Of a stretch of DNA of 35,243 nucleotides, positions 130-35,243 are shown piece after piece. The translations under genes and the position numbers were made by a program. Under the pieces are notes generated by a model. That model was not told where the DNA came from. It was given only the letters and a program-made list of their open reading frames with translations, and did no database searches. The DNA is from a virus. Its lineage: Duplodnaviria; Caudoviricetes. Each line of letters opens with the position of its first letter. Within the stretch, counting starts at the first letter, position 1. The stretch spans positions 1 through 35,243 of IMG/VR virus record IMGVR_UViG_3300023293_000046. One strand, given 5' to 3'.

Positions 130-174
130 AACGTTGAGAATAAACCCTCGTTTTAATGGGGTTTATTTATTGTT
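130..174. other. attC-like hairpin site E7
   Basis: AAC gttga GAATAAACCC tcgttttaatg GGGTTTATTT att GTT. Same AAC-N5-stem...stem-N3-GTT geometry as six other sites. Confidence 0.8.
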
Positions 175-493: not shown

Positions 494-546
494 AACAACT
501 GAATAAGCACACTAGTAAACATACCGACCCAATAAGTCAGAATAAG
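494..546. other. attI-like array-terminal site A (with gaataagcacacta direct repeat at 501-514 and 540-553)
   Basis: Ungapped 39/53 identity with 28360-28412. Starts AAC-N4-GAATAA, has no hairpin, and ends the cassette array. Confidence 0.7.
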
Positions 547-568
547 CACACTACAAAACAAAAACACC

Positions 569-1036: not shown

Positions 1037-1321
1037 ATGAGTAAGCAGATACACAAGCACTGGAGAAAAGACCTAAACCTTTACGAAACAAAGATCAATC
1101 TGTTTTGGTTTATCCATTACTACGTTTACTCAATAAGGCACGGAGCAGAGGTAACAACAAAGTGGAGGCTGTTTAAGTACAAGAATCCCGACTACATGAA
1201 GGGGCCAACCTCTATAGATGTAAAGACTCACGTCGGTCGTAAAGAGTTTAAAACTAAGTATTTATCTAACAAGTGGATGATACCAATTAACAAGTATTTA
1301 GACCTAAATCAAAATGATTAA
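1037..1321 (+). CDS. Hypothetical protein
   Basis: 94-aa ORF in the + strand gene run. Confidence 0.6.
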   Translation: MSKQIHKHWRKDLNLYETKINLFWFIHYYVYSIRHGAEVTTKWRLFKYKNPDYMKGPTSIDVKTHVGRKEFKTKYLSNKWMIPINKYLDLNQND

Positions 1322-20357: not shown

Positions 20358-21137
20358 ATGAGTACTACTGAATTAACACGAATTGAGAATTTACAAAAAG
20401 TATCCAATCAAATTAATGAAGCTTATTCGCCTGAGCAAATTGGAGTAATACAAAAGAGCGTTGCTAAAGATACCACCTTTGCGGAGTTAGCTTACTTCTT
20501 AAACGTATGTAAGACAATGGAGCTAAACCCTTTTAATAAAGAGGTGTGGTGTTATAAGGATAATAGAGGTAATCTTTTAATCTTTTCGGGCCGTGATGGT
20601 TTTCTGTCCAAGGCACAAAAGAACCCGCTATTTAATGGGATGCGTTCCGCTGCTGTTTGTGCGAATGATGATTTTAAAATGAACATTGCAACGGGTGAGA
20701 TTAGCCACTTTCCAAACTTCAAAGAAGATAGAGGCGCTATTATCGGAGCGTATGCAATAGCGTTCAGAAAGGGAGGAGAGGCTACTATAGAGTGGGCAGA
20801 GTTCGCGCGATACAATAAAGGTTATAACGCTTGGAAGAGTCACCCAGAGGAGATGATTAAGAAAGTAGCTGAGTCACATTCATTAAAGAAAGCATTTGGC
20901 ATTTCAGGTGTGCAGTCAGAATATGAGTATGACGTAAAAAACAACATAGCTGCTCCTATTGGTGCGACTGCTAAGGTTGATAAATTACAAGTCTTACAAG
21001 ACCTACTTGATGAGAAAGCAATGGATATAACTCAAGAGGATTATGCAGCTATTAAATTAGTAATAGACGGCAAAGAGGAATCAAGCTATGACAAGGCAAT
21101 AAAAGTATTAACCGAATTACAAACTAATAATGATTAG
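20358..21137 (+). CDS. bet: RecT/Bet-family single-strand annealing protein
   Basis: LNPFNKEVW, GRDGF, IIGAYA, WKSHPEEMIKKVAESHSLKKAF. Confidence 0.9.
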   Translation: MSTTELTRIENLQKVSNQINEAYSPEQIGVIQKSVAKDTTFAELAYFLNVCKTMELNPFNKEVWCYKDNRGNLLIFSGRDGFLSKAQKNPLFNGMRSAAVCANDDFKMNIATGEISHFPNFKEDRGAIIGAYAIAFRKGGEATIEWAEFARYNKGYNAWKSHPEEMIKKVAESHSLKKAFGISGVQSEYEYDVKNNIAAPIGATAKVDKLQVLQDLLDEKAMDITQEDYAAIKLVIDGKEESSYDKAIKVLTELQTNND

Positions 21138-23881: not shown

Positions 23882-23903
23882 TAAAATAATAGTATTACAT
23901 TTG
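23882..23903 (+). promoter_or_regulatory. Promoter with palindromic operator, -7 TACATTTG
   Basis: Second copy of the 20-bp element; consensus TAnnTTTG at 23896-23903. Confidence 0.75.
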
Positions 23904-23923: not shown

Positions 23924-26107
23924 ATGAATGAATACCAACAATTTCTAGAAACTAAAAAAAAGACTTTTCTAGAAAGCGGTTTTGAAGTAGACCAAAGTAC
24001 TTTAAATTCTAATCTATTTGACTTTCAAAATCACATAGTATCTATTGCTTTAAGAAAAGGCAGATTTGCAGTCTTCGCTGATTGTGGTCTAGGTAAGACA
24101 CTAATGCAATTAGCATGGGCCGAGGCTGTTTATAATGAAACAAGTATCAAGGTATTAGTATTAGCCCCGTTAGCGGTAGTAGAACAAACCAAAGAAGAGG
24201 CTATTAAGTTTGGGGTAAATACAGATGCATTTGATATTACTAATTACGATCAGTTAAAAAATGTAGACTGTAGTATTTATAGCGGAGTTGTATTAGATGA
24301 AAGCTCAATATTAAAAGGTCGGGATGGTAAATTATCTAGGCTTATTATTGAAAGCTTTAAATTAACTCCTTACAAATTAGCTTGTACTGCTACACCTTCG
24401 CCTAATGACCATATGGAACTAGGGCAGCATAGCGAGTTTCTAGGCGCGATGACTTATTTAGAAATGCTGGCTATGTACTTCGTTCATGACGGAGGCGAAA
24501 CATCTAAATGGAGATTAAGAAAACACGCTAAAGACCCATTCTGGACTTATGTATGCACTTGGTCTATTGCCGTTGCTGAGCCTTCAACTTTAGGATTTGA
24601 TTCTAGCGGTTATAATTTACCTGAGATCGAATACATTGAGCATATTATTCCAGTAGAAAACAATACAGAGTCTTTATTTGGTGACGTAGCGGTAAGTGCT
24701 ACCGAACTACATAGAGATTTAAAGAGGTCTTTTGATCTTCGTATTAATAAAACTAAAGAAATTATTAGCGGCATCAATGGGCAGTGCATAGTGTGGACGT
24801 TAAAAAATGACGAGGCTACTATTTTATGCAAGGAATTAGACGATAGTGTTAACGTGCAAGGATCGGATAAGCCAGAGTTTAAAGCGAAGAACTTAAATGG
24901 ATTTGCAAAAAAAGAATTTAGTAATCTGATTACTAAAACAAGTATTGCCAGTTTTGGAATGAACTATCAGCAATGCAGTAATATGATATTTACTTCTTAC
25001 GACTTTAAGTTTGAGGCGTTTTATCAAGCAGTTAGAAGGTGTTATAGATTTGGTCAGAAGAACAAAGTAACCGTTCATCTATTAGTACCAGAGAGTCAAG
25101 TTAACGTAAGGGCTACAATTTTAGAAAAGCAAAAAAGACACAAAGAAATGATAGATGAAATGTCTAAATACTCAAGCGAAGCTGATTATAAAAGCAGTAA
25201 GTCAAAAGTTACAATAAGCCATAAGGAAGTAAAGACAGATGAATACCACGTTATTAATGGGGACTGCGTTAAAGAGTCTAAAAAAATAGACGACAATGCT
25301 GCTGATCTAATAGTATTTTCGCCTCCTTTTGCAGAGCTTTATGTTTACTCTGATAAAGAAGAAGACATGGGCAACGTTGCTAACTATAAGCAATTTGAGC
25401 ATCATTTTAAATTTCTGATTCCAGAACTTAAACGAGTATTAAAACCAGGTAGAATATGTGCTATTCATTGCATGGACTTACCAATACAAAAAGGCAAAGA
25501 AGGATATATTGGACTTAGGGACTTTAGCGGTATGATTACTAAATGGTTTCAAGATCAAGGTTTTATTTATCATTCTAGGGTTACAATATGGAAAAACCCA
25601 GTAACTGAAATGCAAAGAACTAAAGCATTAGGATTACTCCATAAGACTATTAAGAAAGATAGCGCAATGACTAGGGTGGGTATTCCTGATTATATTCTTT
25701 ACTTTAGAAATGAAGGAGATAATTTAATACCAATTACCCATCAAGATAAAGACGATAGCAAAGCGGATTATCTACCTGTGGACTTGTGGCAAAAATACGC
25801 TTCACCTGTATGGATGGATATTGATTATGGTAGAACTCTACAATACAGATCGGGTAGAGATGGAAATGACGAGAAGCATATTTGCCCTTTACAACTAGAC
25901 ACCATCGAGAGAATTATCCATTTGTATTCAAATGAAGGAGAAACCATATTTAGCCCATTTGGCGGTATAGGATCAGAGGGGTTTAAAGCAATACAGATGA
26001 ATAGAAAATCTATTAGCATTGAGCTTAAAGAGTCATACTTTGCTTTAAACGCAAAAAACCATAGAGACATTGTAAACGAAAAGAAAAGTACCCTAAAATT
26101 ATTTTAA
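23924..26107 (+). CDS. SNF2-like helicase fused to a beta-class N4-C/N6-A DNA methyltransferase
   Basis: Helicase: CGLGKT, LDESS, TATP, QAVRRCYRFGQ. Methyltransferase: SPPF before FSPFGGIGS. Confidence 0.9.
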   Translation: MNEYQQFLETKKKTFLESGFEVDQSTLNSNLFDFQNHIVSIALRKGRFAVFADCGLGKTLMQLAWAEAVYNETSIKVLVLAPLAVVEQTKEEAIKFGVNTDAFDITNYDQLKNVDCSIYSGVVLDESSILKGRDGKLSRLIIESFKLTPYKLACTATPSPNDHMELGQHSEFLGAMTYLEMLAMYFVHDGGETSKWRLRKHAKDPFWTYVCTWSIAVAEPSTLGFDSSGYNLPEIEYIEHIIPVENNTESLFGDVAVSATELHRDLKRSFDLRINKTKEIISGINGQCIVWTLKNDEATILCKELDDSVNVQGSDKPEFKAKNLNGFAKKEFSNLITKTSIASFGMNYQQCSNMIFTSYDFKFEAFYQAVRRCYRFGQKNKVTVHLLVPESQVNVRATILEKQKRHKEMIDEMSKYSSEADYKSSKSKVTISHKEVKTDEYHVINGDCVKESKKIDDNAADLIVFSPPFAELYVYSDKEEDMGNVANYKQFEHHFKFLIPELKRVLKPGRICAIHCMDLPIQKGKEGYIGLRDFSGMITKWFQDQGFIYHSRVTIWKNPVTEMQRTKALGLLHKTIKKDSAMTRVGIPDYILYFRNEGDNLIPITHQDKDDSKADYLPVDLWQKYASPVWMDIDYGRTLQYRSGRDGNDEKHICPLQLDTIERIIHLYSNEGETIFSPFGGIGSEGFKAIQMNRKSISIELKESYFALNAKNHRDIVNEKKSTLKLF

Positions 26108-26358
26108 TGAGCAGATTACACGATATCTTAACCATCCTAGCAAACCCCGACTTAACAAAGTTGCAGCGCCTATTATTAGCCTACCTAAACGCGCAGCAAG
26201 AGGACGAGATTATTACCAACTACACAATCATAGGCGAGGACATTGTAGTAACAGAGCAGACAGCAGAGCGCACGATCCGGGAGTTAGTACGGGCTGGCTA
26301 TATGCAGAAAAAAACCCTCTCCAAAGTCGGAGTATTATTAAGTAATTTTAGATCGTAA
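26107..26358 (+). CDS. Winged-HTH protein, paralog 1
   Basis: NPDLTKLQRLLLAYLN...TAERTIRELVRAGYM. Confidence 0.7.
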   Translation: MSRLHDILTILANPDLTKLQRLLLAYLNAQQEDEIITNYTIIGEDIVVTEQTAERTIRELVRAGYMQKKTLSKVGVLLSNFRS

Positions 26359-26361
26359 ACT

Positions 26362-26634
26362 ATGACACCAGAAAAAGAAAAAACCGACTACCAGACTATT
26401 ATCCAAAACCAAAGCCTCACACCTATACAACGCTTAATACTGATATACCTAAACACTTTAGAGGCTGATTTTATCGAGGGGCGGTTAACGGATATATCGG
26501 AGTTGTTAGGTATCGGACGAACTACCACCGCGCAAGAAACTATTAAACTACATGCGATGGGTTACTTGCAGCGTGAGAATATGGGGCGGCCAGGGGATAG
26601 ATACGGGATTAGGTTAAGCGATTTTAGGCCGTAA
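26362..26634 (+). CDS. Winged-HTH protein, paralog 2
   Basis: NQSLTPIQRLILIYLN...ISELLGIGRTT...LHAMGYL. Confidence 0.75.
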   Translation: MTPEKEKTDYQTIIQNQSLTPIQRLILIYLNTLEADFIEGRLTDISELLGIGRTTTAQETIKLHAMGYLQRENMGRPGDRYGIRLSDFRP

Positions 26635-26688
26635 CGTGATGGCTATGGTTAGTCATTTGAGGTACGAAAATGGAATATAAACCTTGTT
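26633..26688. other. attC-like hairpin site E1
   Basis: AAC gtgat GGCTAT...cattt/aaatg...ATAAAC ctt GTT; the weakest stem of the set. Confidence 0.65.
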
Positions 26689-26729
26689 AGCGTTTGTTTT
26701 TGAGCGTTGGCAGTAAAAATTAGAATATA

Positions 26730-26972
26730 ATGGCAATAGAAATTAAATACTACAGTGTAGTTGAAAACGGAGAAACAAAGCATTTAAAGACTAAAGTGTC
26801 TTCAACCGTAATTGATTTTATGGTACAAGAATATAAAAAGTTCCATTCATCATTAAAAAACAAAAATGATTACTCGTTTCAGAAATATTTAATAATGCAC
26901 GGGATAGAGTGTATTTATGATGGAACTTTTGGTTATGTAAATATAGATCAAGCGTTGGCAAATGAACGCTAA
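26730..26972 (+). CDS. Cassette gene, hypothetical (80 aa)
   Basis: Arms gttagcgtttgttt (26686-26699) and aaatgaacgctaac (26960-26973). Confidence 0.75.
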   Translation: MAIEIKYYSVVENGETKHLKTKVSSTVIDFMVQEYKKFHSSLKNKNDYSFQKYLIMHGIECIYDGTFGYVNIDQALANER

Positions 26973-27022
26973 CGATGGGAATATGGTTAGTGGATTTTTA
27001 GCCATTAAATATATTACGTGTT
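26971..27022. other. attC-like hairpin site E2
   Basis: AAC gatgg gaATATGGTTAGTGG atttttag CCATTAAATATATta cgt GTT. Confidence 0.8.
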
Positions 27023-27060
27023 GTACATAGTGCGGAATTAATAATAAAAACTTAAATAAA

Positions 27061-27369
27061 ATGAAACAAGAAAAAATAGATTACGACAAGATTATGGCTT
27101 TGGGCTTTAGTGTAGAAATTGCTTCTGATAGTTGTTATGAGGCTGAACACGGATATGCTTATTGCATAATTACAAAGAACCTAACAAAGAAGATTTACTT
27201 GGACTGGCAAAAAGATACTAAACTTTGTAAAATGGTAAGAATAGATAGCCCAAAGACAGGTAATGTAAAAGCAGAAACCCAAATAATGAACCTAGAGCAA
27301 ATTAAAACTCTAATAGATTTTTTCTCCAACGAGAAAAGAACTGAACCTAATTATTATGGACTAGCCTAG
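27061..27369 (+). CDS. Cassette gene, hypothetical (102 aa)
   Basis: Arms gttgtacatagtgc (27020-27033) and gcattgtgtacaat (27369-27382). Confidence 0.8.
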   Translation: MKQEKIDYDKIMALGFSVEIASDSCYEAEHGYAYCIITKNLTKKIYLDWQKDTKLCKMVRIDSPKTGNVKAETQIMNLEQIKTLIDFFSNEKRTEPNYYGLA

Positions 27370-27379
27370 CATTGTGTAC

Positions 27380-27466
27380 AATGACTAGGCTATGAATTGA
27401 AGCCATTAATACAAAGTTTAATTCACAACAATAACCTTGACAGGGCTTTTATTTATAGGCTTTGTT
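27380..27466. other. attC-like hairpin site E3 (AAT variant)
   Basis: AAT gacta ggCTATGAATTGAAGCC...GGCTTTTATTTATAGgc ttt GTT. Confidence 0.8.
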
Positions 27467-27482
27467 AGCAACTTTTAAAATT

Positions 27483-27638
27483 ATGGTAAAGAGAATATTA
27501 AACACACTTGGATTTATCGCATACACTATTATTATTTTAACACCCTTATTTTTTCCTTATATGATAATAAGAGGTTGGACTAAAACAGAAGATGAGTTAT
27601 TGAAACCTATGTTTTATTTTATAGACGGAATGGAATAA
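27483..27638 (+). CDS. Cassette gene, small membrane protein (51 aa)
   Basis: [51 protein letters not shown]; arms gttagcaac..aaaatta and taatttt..gttgctaac. Not in the ORF track. Confidence 0.75.
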
Positions 27639-27652
27639 TTTTTATTGTTGCT

Positions 27653-27736
27653 AACGTTTAGTATAAGGTGAGAAGCCACACCTAAATTTGGCTATTTAAA
27701 ACAAACCCTTGTGGGCTTTTCACTTTATACAGTGTT
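27653..27736. other. attC-like hairpin site E4
   Basis: AAC gttta GTATAAGGTGAGAAGCC...GGCTTTTCACTTTATAC agt GTT; 17-bp stem with G:T pairs. Confidence 0.85.
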
Positions 27737-27758
27737 ACCCACTTTTAAAATTACGATT

Positions 27759-27986
27759 ATGGAAGATGTACTAAAATTTGATTACAAAAAAGGTATGCAA
27801 ACTGTTTACCCTGTACATTTTATGGTTAAGAATTGGGCATTTACAGAAGATGAACACGCAGAAGCAACACTTGCACACGCAATGGCAGTTGTAGCAGAAA
27901 AGAACGGAATGAGTGCAGATGATTTATCACACCTTTTCCCTGCACTTCTTAGAACTCTAAAAAGTAAAATTGATTGGGCTAAGTAA
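27759..27986 (+). CDS. Cassette gene, hypothetical (75 aa)
   Basis: ATG 27759 preferred because GTG 27711 is inside the hairpin; arms gttacccac..aaaatta and taatttt..gtgggtaac. Confidence 0.75.
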   Translation: MEDVLKFDYKKGMQTVYPVHFMVKNWAFTEDEHAEATLAHAMAVVAEKNGMSADDLSHLFPALLRTLKSKIDWAK

Positions 27987-28000
27987 TTTTTATTGTGGGT

Positions 28001-28053
28001 AACGATTAGTATATGAAATGTGGAGCAAAGCGGAATTTTTTATATACCGTGTT
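28001..28053. other. attC-like hairpin site E5
   Basis: AAC gatta GTATATGAAA...TTTTATATAC cgt GTT. Confidence 0.8.
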
Positions 28054-28075
28054 ATGCTCTTTTAAATTTAGATAG

Positions 28076-28351
28076 ATGACGAAAATGTATATAGTAAGAT
28101 ATTGCGGTGGTAGTTATGATGATTGGTATGAGGCTAATGTATTTGTAACTGATAAAAAGACAACTGCTACCAAGTATGTAACCAAGTTTAACAAGACTCT
28201 TGAAAAGTGGAAGAAGTACTACAGTCAATTTGAAAGCAAAGAACTAGGTATGACTTGGATAAAAGATGAATATGTGGATCAACATTTTAATAGATGGAAT
28301 ATCCTAAGAAATATAAATAACTGTTATTGGAAGGAAATAGAGTTAAGGTAA
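28076..28351 (+). CDS. Cassette gene, hypothetical (91 aa)
   Basis: Arms gttatgctc (28051-28059) and gagcataac (28354-28362). Confidence 0.8.
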   Translation: MTKMYIVRYCGGSYDDWYEANVFVTDKKTTATKYVTKFNKTLEKWKKYYSQFESKELGMTWIKDEYVDQHFNRWNILRNINNCYWKEIELR

Positions 28352-28359
28352 TTGAGCAT

Positions 28360-28412
28360 AACAACTGGATAAGCGCACCACTACATATATACACCTAGTA
28401 AGTTAGGATATG
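28360..28412. other. attI-like array-terminal site B
   Basis: aacaactggataagcgcacc...taagttaggatatg; ungapped homolog of 494-546. Confidence 0.7.
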
Positions 28413-28670
28413 TTTACCCAAAAATCTCTTAAACTTGGGACACGTTATATTATTTCAGCCATTAAAACGGACATTGATTTTACGATAGCCGATTAGTTAA
28501 TTAAATAAACGCCAGTAATTTAAAAAACTGGTTAATCTTTGAATAAATTAAAATACCTTTAGACCCTACCTTAATCAGTTACAGAGTGGGGACTATCTAC
28601 GCCAACACCTTAAGCCTAATATTCATCATTAATAAATTGATAGTATTAACCTTCTTTATTTTTACTTTTT

Positions 28671-29798
28671 ATGCCGAAGAAAAGAGAAAACCGCTACCGT
28701 ATAAACAACGAGACAGCAAAGCAACTAGGAATAGAAACCAATAAAAGCGGGCGGTACTCACTTAGGCCCGACAAAGAAAAGGAGTATCTAGCCATTAAAC
28801 AAGACTCGGTTGTAGATGAGGCCCTTCACCGAGGGAACCTAAAACAAAATAGTTGGAAGGTTGCATGGGTTAAAGAAGAGGGCGTTTCTGTCCTAGTTAA
28901 GAATCCGGACTTTAAAGAGCACACTATAGACTACGACATCCTCCGAGAGGACATGATTGCAGAGATGCTCGAACTCTCACCAGTAGTTAAGAAGTATAAG
29001 CGCAAGAAGATAACTGACCCGCATTGCTTAGTGCTAGATATTGCCGATCTCCACGTAGGGAAGCTGTCAACGGTAGGAGGGGCGGGGAACCATTACAATG
29101 TAGACGTAGCAATTGAAAGGGCTATAACAGCCTCCGAGTCATTAATAGATAAGTCCAAGCCTTACAACATAGATAAGGTTTTCTTTATCATTGGCAACGA
29201 TGTACTCCACACCGACAACACCACGGGATCCACAACCAAAGGAACGAACCAAGACACGGACGGGATGTGGTACGATAATTTTAAAGTCGCTCGGATAGTC
29301 TACACTCAGATCATTCAGCGCCTATCAACTATTGCACCCGTTCATGTAATACACTGCCCGTCTAATCACGATTATATGACGGGCTTTATGTTAGCTGATA
29401 GTGTTAGCTGCTACTTTCACAACAATCAAAATGTAACTTTTGATGTGACAAACGTGCATCGAAAGTATTACCTATATGGAACTAATTTCTTAGCGTTTTC
29501 TCACGGAGAAGGAGCTAAATTAGATCAGATACCGTTATTAGCAGCGCACGAAGCACCTATACTTTGGGCGCACGCTGTTTATCGTTATTGCTTTCTGCAT
29601 CATATCCACCACAAGGATGTATTTAAGTTCCGTAGCGGCAAGGATTACATAGGAATGACGGTAGAGTATTTAAGAAGCCCAAGCGCGCCAGACCAATGGC
29701 ATGCCGATAAAGGTTTGGTAGGGGCTAAGATTGCGATAGAGTCATTTATCCACCACCCGCAACAAGGCCAGATTGCAAGGCACACGCATAATTTTTAA
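28671..29798 (+). CDS. Calcineurin-like metallophosphoesterase
   Basis: DLH, GND, SNHD, HG and HIHH motifs in canonical order. Confidence 0.85.
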   Translation: MPKKRENRYRINNETAKQLGIETNKSGRYSLRPDKEKEYLAIKQDSVVDEALHRGNLKQNSWKVAWVKEEGVSVLVKNPDFKEHTIDYDILREDMIAEMLELSPVVKKYKRKKITDPHCLVLDIADLHVGKLSTVGGAGNHYNVDVAIERAITASESLIDKSKPYNIDKVFFIIGNDVLHTDNTTGSTTKGTNQDTDGMWYDNFKVARIVYTQIIQRLSTIAPVHVIHCPSNHDYMTGFMLADSVSCYFHNNQNVTFDVTNVHRKYYLYGTNFLAFSHGEGAKLDQIPLLAAHEAPILWAHAVYRYCFLHHIHHKDVFKFRSGKDYIGMTVEYLRSPSAPDQWHADKGLVGAKIAIESFIHHPQQGQIARHTHNF

Positions 29799-34395: not shown

Positions 34396-34902
34396 ATGAC
34401 CACACAGCAACTACAAGACCGGCACGAGAAAGGGGAGCGCATACTAGATATGATTAAGAGCGTTGAAAGGCAAATGGAAGATAGAAAATCTCACATAAAG
34501 TACCTAGACCATAATAATGTAGGTAGCATATCTCATAGATTAAGGGTAACAAAAGATATAGATCAAGCCCCTAAGACAATAGCCCGACTAAGAAACTACT
34601 ACTTCAACACTATGGAGATAGTACCAACCGAAAGCATTCAAGATATAGCCAAGGAGGTAGCAAGGAAAACGGAAATTTCCCCAATAACGGACGGCAAGAA
34701 ATACCAGATCGAAACATTTGAGAGCCAAGACTACCGCCTAGAGTTTGAATTTACCCCTCATTATTCACAGGGAGAGTTTGAGGGCGTCTCCGATCTTCAC
34801 ATATACGAGCTATTCCATGACCGCAGGACGTACACAATGGAGGAGCTTGACGGGCTTAAGATGTTACTGTGGGATACGTTAAACAGGAAGGGAAGAGGGT
34901 GA
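34396..34902 (+). CDS. Hypothetical protein
   Basis: 168 aa; its stop codon forms the left edge of array 2. Confidence 0.7.
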   Translation: MTTQQLQDRHEKGERILDMIKSVERQMEDRKSHIKYLDHNNVGSISHRLRVTKDIDQAPKTIARLRNYYFNTMEIVPTESIQDIAKEVARKTEISPITDGKKYQIETFESQDYRLEFEFTPHYSQGEFEGVSDLHIYELFHDRRTYTMEELDGLKMLLWDTLNRKGRG

Positions 34903-34944
34903 CGTTTAGTATAAGAGCCGTTTTAATGTGTGTTATACATTGTT
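34901..34944. other. attC-like hairpin site E6 (GAC variant)
   Basis: GAC gttta GTATAA gagccgttttaatgtgtg TTATAC att GTT; shares the loop cgttttaatg with E7. Confidence 0.75.
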
Positions 34945-34982: not shown

Positions 34983-35216
34983 ATGCAAAATTTTAAAATA
35001 GGTGACAAGGTTTACCATAAAGCAGATGCAGCCCCTTTTGAGGTGGTTGGAATTAGAAAAACAACAGTAGAAATACAAGGTGATTGGAGTGGTGGAACTC
35101 ACAATGTAAATCAAAAGGGGTGGGTAAACCATACTGAGATTAAACCTTATGACAAAACCAAAGTAAAATATTACATAGATGGTAAACCGTTTATGAATGG
35201 AATAGCACTAACGTAG
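34983..35216 (+). CDS. Cassette gene, small SH3-like beta protein (77 aa)
   Basis: FKIGDKVYHK...FEVVGI; arms gttgtaagtagtac (34942-34955) and gtattacttacaac (119-132 via the circular join). Confidence 0.75.
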   Translation: MQNFKIGDKVYHKADAAPFEVVGIRKTTVEIQGDWSGGTHNVNQKGWVNHTEIKPYDKTKVKYYIDGKPFMNGIALT

Positions 35217-35223
35217 TATTACT
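35098..35223 (+). repeat. Terminal direct repeat, right copy
   Basis: Identical to 1-126. Confidence 0.95.
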
Positions 35224-35243
35224 AAACTTTAATAAATAACAAA

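Follow-up and report, generated by a model that had tools for sequence, protein, structure and literature searches.

Conserved non-hairpin sites closing two cassette arrays of a phage are likely attI-type docks

Integron-type capture of gene cassettes is thought to require the integrase IntI, an adjacent attI site and cassette genes that face away from attI. The same polarity is described in PMC5027507, in which the cut is placed between A and C in an AAC triplet on the better-folding bottom strand; attI1 has L and R as well as DR1 and DR2, two direct repeats, and attIA is described as having none (PMC8946536). Secondary insertion sites have been named attG (Loot et al., bioRxiv 10.1101/2022.09.11.507474). 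Hardly any complete integrons are reported for Bacteroidetes by IntegronFinder 2.

Phage-borne CALINs were described by Qi et al. (2023; PMC9892861), who recombined one site of Polaribacter phage P12002L with IntI1 and took the cassette orientation as mosaicism; we found no docking site described there for these CALINs. In Bacteroidales, rAID-1 loci (Ross et al., bioRxiv 10.1101/471110) combine an XerD-like recombinase with co-directional downstream genes, the cargo being toxin immunity, and with intergenic motifs ‘reminiscent of integrons’, of which one lies just past the recombinase stop codon. Membership was drawn there at more than 44% identity to the Bacteroides fragilis recombinase together with a shared intergenic motif; our comparison is one of layout. 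We found in the preprint neither a mechanism nor an attI, nor a form carried by phages. Among freely accessible main texts, our search brought up no description of docks of this kind in phages.

Here we analyse IMG/VR record IMGVR_UViG_3300023293_000046 (35,243 nt, called the window), in which two 53-base sites, docks A and B, each close a cassette array. Like attI, the docks do not fold, stand at one end of a hairpin-bounded array, join the cassettes at AAC and carry two core boxes with further boxes outward. In contrast to integron attI, they have a 4-base spacer and neither an integrase nor a known promoter adjoins them; moreover, the phage cassette genes face the dock, an orientation described as never seen in mobile or chromosomal integrons (PMC5027507). 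P12002L resembles this phage in being a Bacteroidota phage with attC-type arrays and without an integrase (PMC9892861). The phage differs from rAID-1 in having no recombinase and in the reversed direction of its genes; its genome thus falls outside the rAID-1 recombinase definition, while the rAID-1 layout is found at bacterial loci with similar docks. We put at about three in four the probability that the two sites, as fixed array ends at which cassettes change between strains, are attI-type docks for an Xer-like recombinase that comes from the host or from a phage infecting the same cell.

The phage, its arrays and the two docks

The window is a complete circular phage genome of ∼35.1 kb, in which bases 1–126 recur at 35098–35223; one independent contig (L001) traverses the circular join. 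Its last 20 bases (35224–35243) stray from the circular path just ahead of site A2 and probably represent a branch in the assembly where a cassette ends. DNA of the phage is present in 24 listed runs, which are labelled as salt lake metagenome. The genome encodes terminase, portal, Clp protease, RecT, DnaB and methyltransferase. Immediately left of array B stands a 727-aa fusion of a SNF2-type helicase and an N6/N4 methyltransferase (23924–26107). A 25-bp repeat occurs in three copies (20097, 23877 and 33938), two of which end in TAnnTTTG; these repeats are likely to be phage promoters upstream of both arrays. Because the hairpins match those of Cellulophaga and Maribacter phages, we infer a Bacteroidota host. 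No tyrosine recombinase was found in the phage, either among its 49 ORFs, in a six-frame search with PF00589 or with a recombinase profile of our own.

Array B (26633–28362) holds five cassettes and array A, which runs from 34901 through the circular join to 496, holds two (Table 1). With five and two hairpin sites and no integrase near, both have the make-up of CALINs (at least two attC-type sites without a nearby integrase). All seven hairpins have a 5-base left and a 3-base right spacer, so that the 4-base spacer of the docks sets them apart, as the sequence-only reading had it. The plus strand is the better-folding strand in 7/7 hairpins, as the bottom strand is in integrons (PMC5027507); several of the AT-rich hairpins are no more stable than shuffled sequences. 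In each of the seven cassettes, the GTT stretch at the start is complementary to the AAC stretch at the end at 8–10 of 10 positions, with 10/10 for the cassette next to dock A (172/494) and 9/10 for that next to dock B (28051/28360). All seven point to the dock.

Both arrays start inside a stop codon that is followed by C. This is a minimal core such as is expected for insertion outside att sites, and recalls attG; attG insertion, unlike the situation here, accounts for orphan cassettes and not for the gain of a conserved dock. Within window positions 26354–26634, a contig of run X21 joins 26353 to 26630 and thereby ties array B to the preceding gene's stop codon, and in the relative G003 an array is found at that same stop codon.

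Table 1. Positions of docks, hairpin sites, cassette genes and compared sites (window coordinates unless a locus is named)
Feature	Position	Strand	Remark
Dock A	494..546	+	AAC, 4-base spacer, box GAATAA 501–506, second box 540–545
Dock A predicted crossover	between 495 and 496
14-bp repeat, second copy	540..553	+	first copy 501–514; dock A only
Dock B	28360..28412	+	AAC, 4-base spacer, box GGATAA 28367–28372, second box 28406–28411
Dock B predicted crossover	between 28361 and 28362
Dock B inverted hexamer	28387–28392
Dock B right flank	28413..28447	+	common to dock of another phage (L039), partly L183/L195
attC-like site B1	26633..26688	+	array B left end; begins in stop codon of ORF 26362–26634
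Cassette ORF, 80 aa	26730..26972	+	92% DNA copy within array of another phage (L195)
attC-like site B2	26971..27022	+
Cassette ORF, 102 aa	27061..27369	+	without Pfam or PHROG match
attC-like site B3	27380..27466	+	AAT replaces AAC; like sites in L039 and Cellulophaga phage phi17:1
Cassette ORF, 51 aa	27483..27638	+
attC-like site B4	27653..27736	+	96% copy at dock A of L187, there before another gene
Cassette ORF, 75 aa	27759..27986	+
attC-like site B5	28001..28053	+
Dock-proximal cassette ORF, array B, 91 aa	28076..28351	+
attC-like site A1	34901..34944	+	GAC replaces AAC; array A left end; begins in stop codon of ORF 34396–34902
Cassette ORF, 77 aa	34983..35216	+	crosses circular join
attC-like site A2	130..174	+
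Dock-proximal cassette ORF, array A, 89 aa	214..483	+	phrog_419, unknown function
RecT gene	20358–21137
N4 site of Leef_1	L271:3671–3728
N4 site of Ingeline_1	L272:2946–2995

The likeness of the two docks, first noticed in the sequence-only reading, was reproduced: they agree without gaps at 39 of 53 positions. The next-best match of either dock elsewhere in the window reaches 29, and the best pair of 53-mers in each of 12 locally shuffled genomes reached 33–35 and never 36. Each dock opens with AAC-N4-GRATAA directly where the last cassette of its array ends, again as had been claimed, and the box of dock A is identical to the left box of site A2. Neither dock folds (z from −0.4 to +0.7). An Rfam search gave no match. 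Other proposals about the docks held in part. They were said to have no partner arm, and indeed no box-N3-GTT lies within ∼250 bases, but an inverted hexamer, WTATNC, remains in dock B; it occupies dock positions 28–33 in 8 of the 11 distinct docks described below, dock A not being among them. The 14-bp direct repeat is exact in dock A but present in no other dock. What does recur is the 6-base box, seen again 38–39 bases on in 10/11 distinct docks and kept there even when the bases before it differ (L185 and L188). The flank to the right of dock B (cf. L039, L183 and L195) is conserved, contains a short inverted repeat and follows several docks.

Exchange of cassettes at the dock

Scans of viral and metagenome sequences yielded, in phage-like contigs, 11 distinct docks at 14 junctions with 12 different left ends. 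They form one sequence family, whereas the hairpins vary, and the AAC with the first box is their best-conserved part. At the 12 junctions with enough upstream DNA to be testable, the cassette start matched the dock-side end at 9–10 of 10 positions in ten, at 8 in one and at 7 in one. The motif, which might have occurred independently of cassette arrays, proved to be tied to cassette ends. Two docks are likewise present in each of G001 (L016 and L223), L193 and, as variants, the relative G003. In viral contigs, a strict two-box pattern gave three matches, all from this phage; a looser two-box pattern gave four, one of them new; a 17-base pattern gave 77, comprising three own copies, two real docks and 72 without the extended motif; a flank pattern gave seven, four of them by chance; and a second-box pattern gave 16 with one new dock. 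BLAST of the docks against GenBank phages returned chance matches only. In P12002L (L273), both arrays likewise end in one common non-hairpin site, here of 65 bp with a 3-base spacer (AAC-AAC-GGATAA), near 29240 and 37260 on the minus strand.

Two contigs carry alleles of this phage with other cassettes. L187 is 99.7% identical to the window over 494–1077, and L196 is 98.3% identical from dock B to 29218. Both agree with the window at 70/70 bases rightwards from the AAC and at 22/70 and 24/70, respectively, to its left, where different cassettes with complementary ends are found. One of those in L187 encodes a methyltransferase-like protein, as judged from motifs. Further junctions vary in the same manner: L183 and L195 have the same dock and different last cassettes, one cassette end abuts the dock in L185, L190 and L191 and a hairpin in L195, and a contig of run X21 has 333 foreign bases and then dock B from 28358. 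In addition, run contigs have loose ends at or beside the AAC of B2, B3, B4 and B5. Judged by these alignments, cassette content switches exactly at the dock AAC between natural strains. Farther to the right, L187 lacks 231 bp of ORF 1037–1321 (window 1078–1308), a deletion that lies between two 9-bp repeats.

Empty sites in related phages, proposed as a check, were sought without success in two complete relatives and in eight lay-outs of contigs from seven runs, where the contigs show the presence of joints and not their absence. Both complete relatives run parallel to the window as far as the stop codon at which array B starts, and from there on have neither array nor dock; G004 is also without array A at that place, and in G003 two other intergenic places carry arrays with docks. 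Since dock and array are missing together, the dock would be no ancestral empty slot but would have come with the array. G004 was considered as an empty site, its flank resembling that of one G003 dock, and was rejected as not clean because it has neither core nor array.

Recombinase genes beside sites of the same build

A strict pattern for the hairpin family found it in 9 of 401 Bacteroidota genomes (a control pattern gave eight single hits), and in the eight regions inspected the hairpins lie mostly between genes and on the opposite strand to them. In one bacterial array, the terminal AAC-N4 site lies 85 bases ahead of the gene for a 280-aa recombinase, P0001. This protein scores above the cut-off of NF040815 and, with 202 bits, below the cut-off of 265 of TIGR02249 (integron integrase); in contrast to the Vibrio integrase 2A3V, it is without ∼43 residues in the region of the IntI insert. 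Within one family, 102 of 201 genomes contain relatives of P0001. We took in 71 loci, namely L238, 30 of the relatives listed and 40 chosen by hand from the list, skipping places at contig starts and leaving automatic spacer classes, which were noisy, out of the counts. An AAC-N4-box site with a perfect 9-base match to a cassette end lies within 200 bp of an Xer-like recombinase gene in 36/71 loci, as compared with 2/71 and 0/71 at control positions.

These bacterial docks stand past the end of the recombinase gene in 26 cases, the same place as the rAID-1 motif, and before its start in 11; the GTT arm is missing in 36/37. They occupy the position of attI, as the phage docks do, with the genes inverted between the two: ORFs face away from the dock in 31/33 bacterial cases, as against 7/7 towards it in the phage. 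Counter to the bacterial polarity, one clear cassette in bacteria, that of L241, points to its dock. The closest bacterial sites (L268, L291 and L253, the top of ∼730 such sites) match dock A or B at 19, 18 and 18 of 24 positions, with 19/24 the best for dock A and 18/24 for dock B. Bacterial docks contain a short palindrome that ends in an inverted box at positions 28–33 (median −5.5 kcal/mol). In the phage docks the box is retained without the pairing (−0.4 and −2.1 kcal/mol), which could reflect decay; the WTATNC hexamer then looks to be the surviving half of the decayed palindrome.

In the cultured phages Leef_1 and Ingeline_1, cassettes face an N4 site that is followed by an integrase gene ∼50 bases on, and both integrases score below the TIGR02249 cut-off. 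Because these ‘integrases’ follow a dock and a cassette array, they may not be lysogeny enzymes. The main text of Bartlau et al. (PMC8776804) uses neither ‘integron’ nor ‘cassette’.

The motif had been expected to lie next to a tyrosine recombinase gene. Sites of the same build do so, in bacteria and in the two cultured phages, but for the exact motif no such case was found: no recombinase stands beside a dock of the exact family in the window, in 16 phage stretches that bear docks or are related, many of these being fragments of 2–6 kb, or in three stretches of bacterium G558. The latter contains four near copies of the phage motif (20–21 of 26 positions) after genes pointing away; the copies, at C2 136414, 137638 and 144364 and C17 37201, consist of the dock and its conserved flank and have no close recombinase beside them. 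Elsewhere, the strict motif gave nine matches in a species-wide genome scan, all by chance, and none in 132 genomes of one order, a poorly chosen centre for the search; a looser pattern matched 2 of 401 genomes, one of the two being real. A viral scan with P0001 confirmed no relative, and PF00589 was absent from nine viral records, five of them incomplete.

Two candidate links were rejected. A recombinase stub after the dock came down to a 28-codon frame at 28410 without profile match, and the likeness of the dock B flank to the recombinase leader of L247, the best of ∼33 targets, was reached by 46 of 3000 shuffles. At L237:9893–12100 (minus strand), the ORFs after a hairpin site have motifs suggestive of a recombinase and an IS91-type transposase.

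Alternative explanations and a proposed mechanism

The docks might be inactive passengers, with RecT-type homologous recombination swapping arrays between phages and the shared dock serving as the right-hand crossover. The phage does encode RecT and no recombinase, no empty allele was found, the dock palindrome is broken and the docks are common to unrelated phages. Nevertheless, L187 and L196 keep the A-type and the B-type dock, respectively, from the first base, and only 19 leading bases of dock A and 15 of dock B are common to other known docks, a short target that weakens the case for RecT swaps and also argues against chimeras. As the AAC and first box are moreover what is best kept across the 11 docks, we regard passive carriage as unlikely.

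Considerably less probable is an origin as truncated attC hairpins, minus one spacer base and the distal GTT, that mark a cut in the array. The inverted hexamer in 8/11 docks would suit such an origin, as would L199, whose terminal N4 site has a complete stem but no GTT. The same N4, GTT-less build, however, recurs beside recombinase genes in 36/71 bacterial loci, and the 11 docks are one sequence family whereas hairpins are variable; an origin of this kind would in any case be compatible with use as a dock.

The motif might instead serve the genes on its right as a promoter or regulatory element, being intergenic, conserved and placed before genes at both places. TAnnTTTG is the Bacteroidota promoter consensus; it is in neither dock, yet it is present at 23896 and 33957. 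A sigma-70 match is absent at dock B, the motif is fixed to cassette ends, and relatives keep the downstream genes without the motif, so that this explanation has very little left in its favour. That the swapped alleles are assembly chimeras over a shared repeat is barely credible: L187 and L196 are short metagenome contigs (2.0–2.1 kb) and hairpins cause many assembly branches, but, besides sharing leading runs of at most 19 and 15 bases, both differ from the window elsewhere (the 231-bp deletion; 98.3% identity), as separate strains would.

The proposal that the phage carries two attI-equivalent platforms is therefore supported by the switches at the AAC, by the tie of the motif to cassette ends and by sites of the same build beside recombinase genes, with the limit that the enzyme family is not that of IntI. 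In the best reading of these sequences, the docks would be the attI-equivalents of an integron-like Bacteroidota system with the layout of rAID-1, served in trans by a recombinase without the IntI insert; they appear to work like attI while lying outside the classical attI family. Because the phage has no recombinase, it is likely to borrow that of its host. Cassettes and dock meet at AA|C. On the integron model, the plus strand would be the ‘bottom’ strand; a hairpin site, once folded, would be cleaved at AA|C and recombined with the dock in its double-stranded form, and the most recent cassette would come to stand beside the dock. Since the cassette genes point to the dock, phage transcription entering from the left, and not a dock promoter, would read them. 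Dock and array may arrive as one module, with recombination at a core-mimicking stop codon as its left border and a ragged join as its right. The cassette pool would be exchanged among phages, because cassettes from bacteria would come to lie antisense to transcription in the phage, and the recombinase would act in trans.

A broader picture, which we offer tentatively and hold at somewhat less than even odds, is that integrase-free lytic Bacteroidota phages carry mobile copies of host docks, parasitise the Xer-like recombinase of the host, trade inverted cassettes found only in phages and build operons from the far end; the dock would hop between intergenic spots, and any stop codon followed by C could become a platform. 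If the docks function as proposed, phage CALINs may be live capture platforms, and the ‘integrases’ taken as signs of lysogeny in Leef_1 and Ingeline_1 (PMC8776804) may be cassette enzymes. As substrates the docks are short and cloneable, swap alleles of them exist in nature and candidate enzymes can be named; the action on folded sites of a recombinase without the IntI insert, and its borrowing by phages, are therefore testable.

Exchange may also occur inside cassettes. In the last cassette of L187, the hairpin and both ends are those of window cassette B4, with another gene inside, and joints in L187, L183 and the run contigs have the same cassette ends and hairpins around different genes. 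Because identical ends and hairpins enclose different genes, this suggests that genes are exchanged within the cassette shell.
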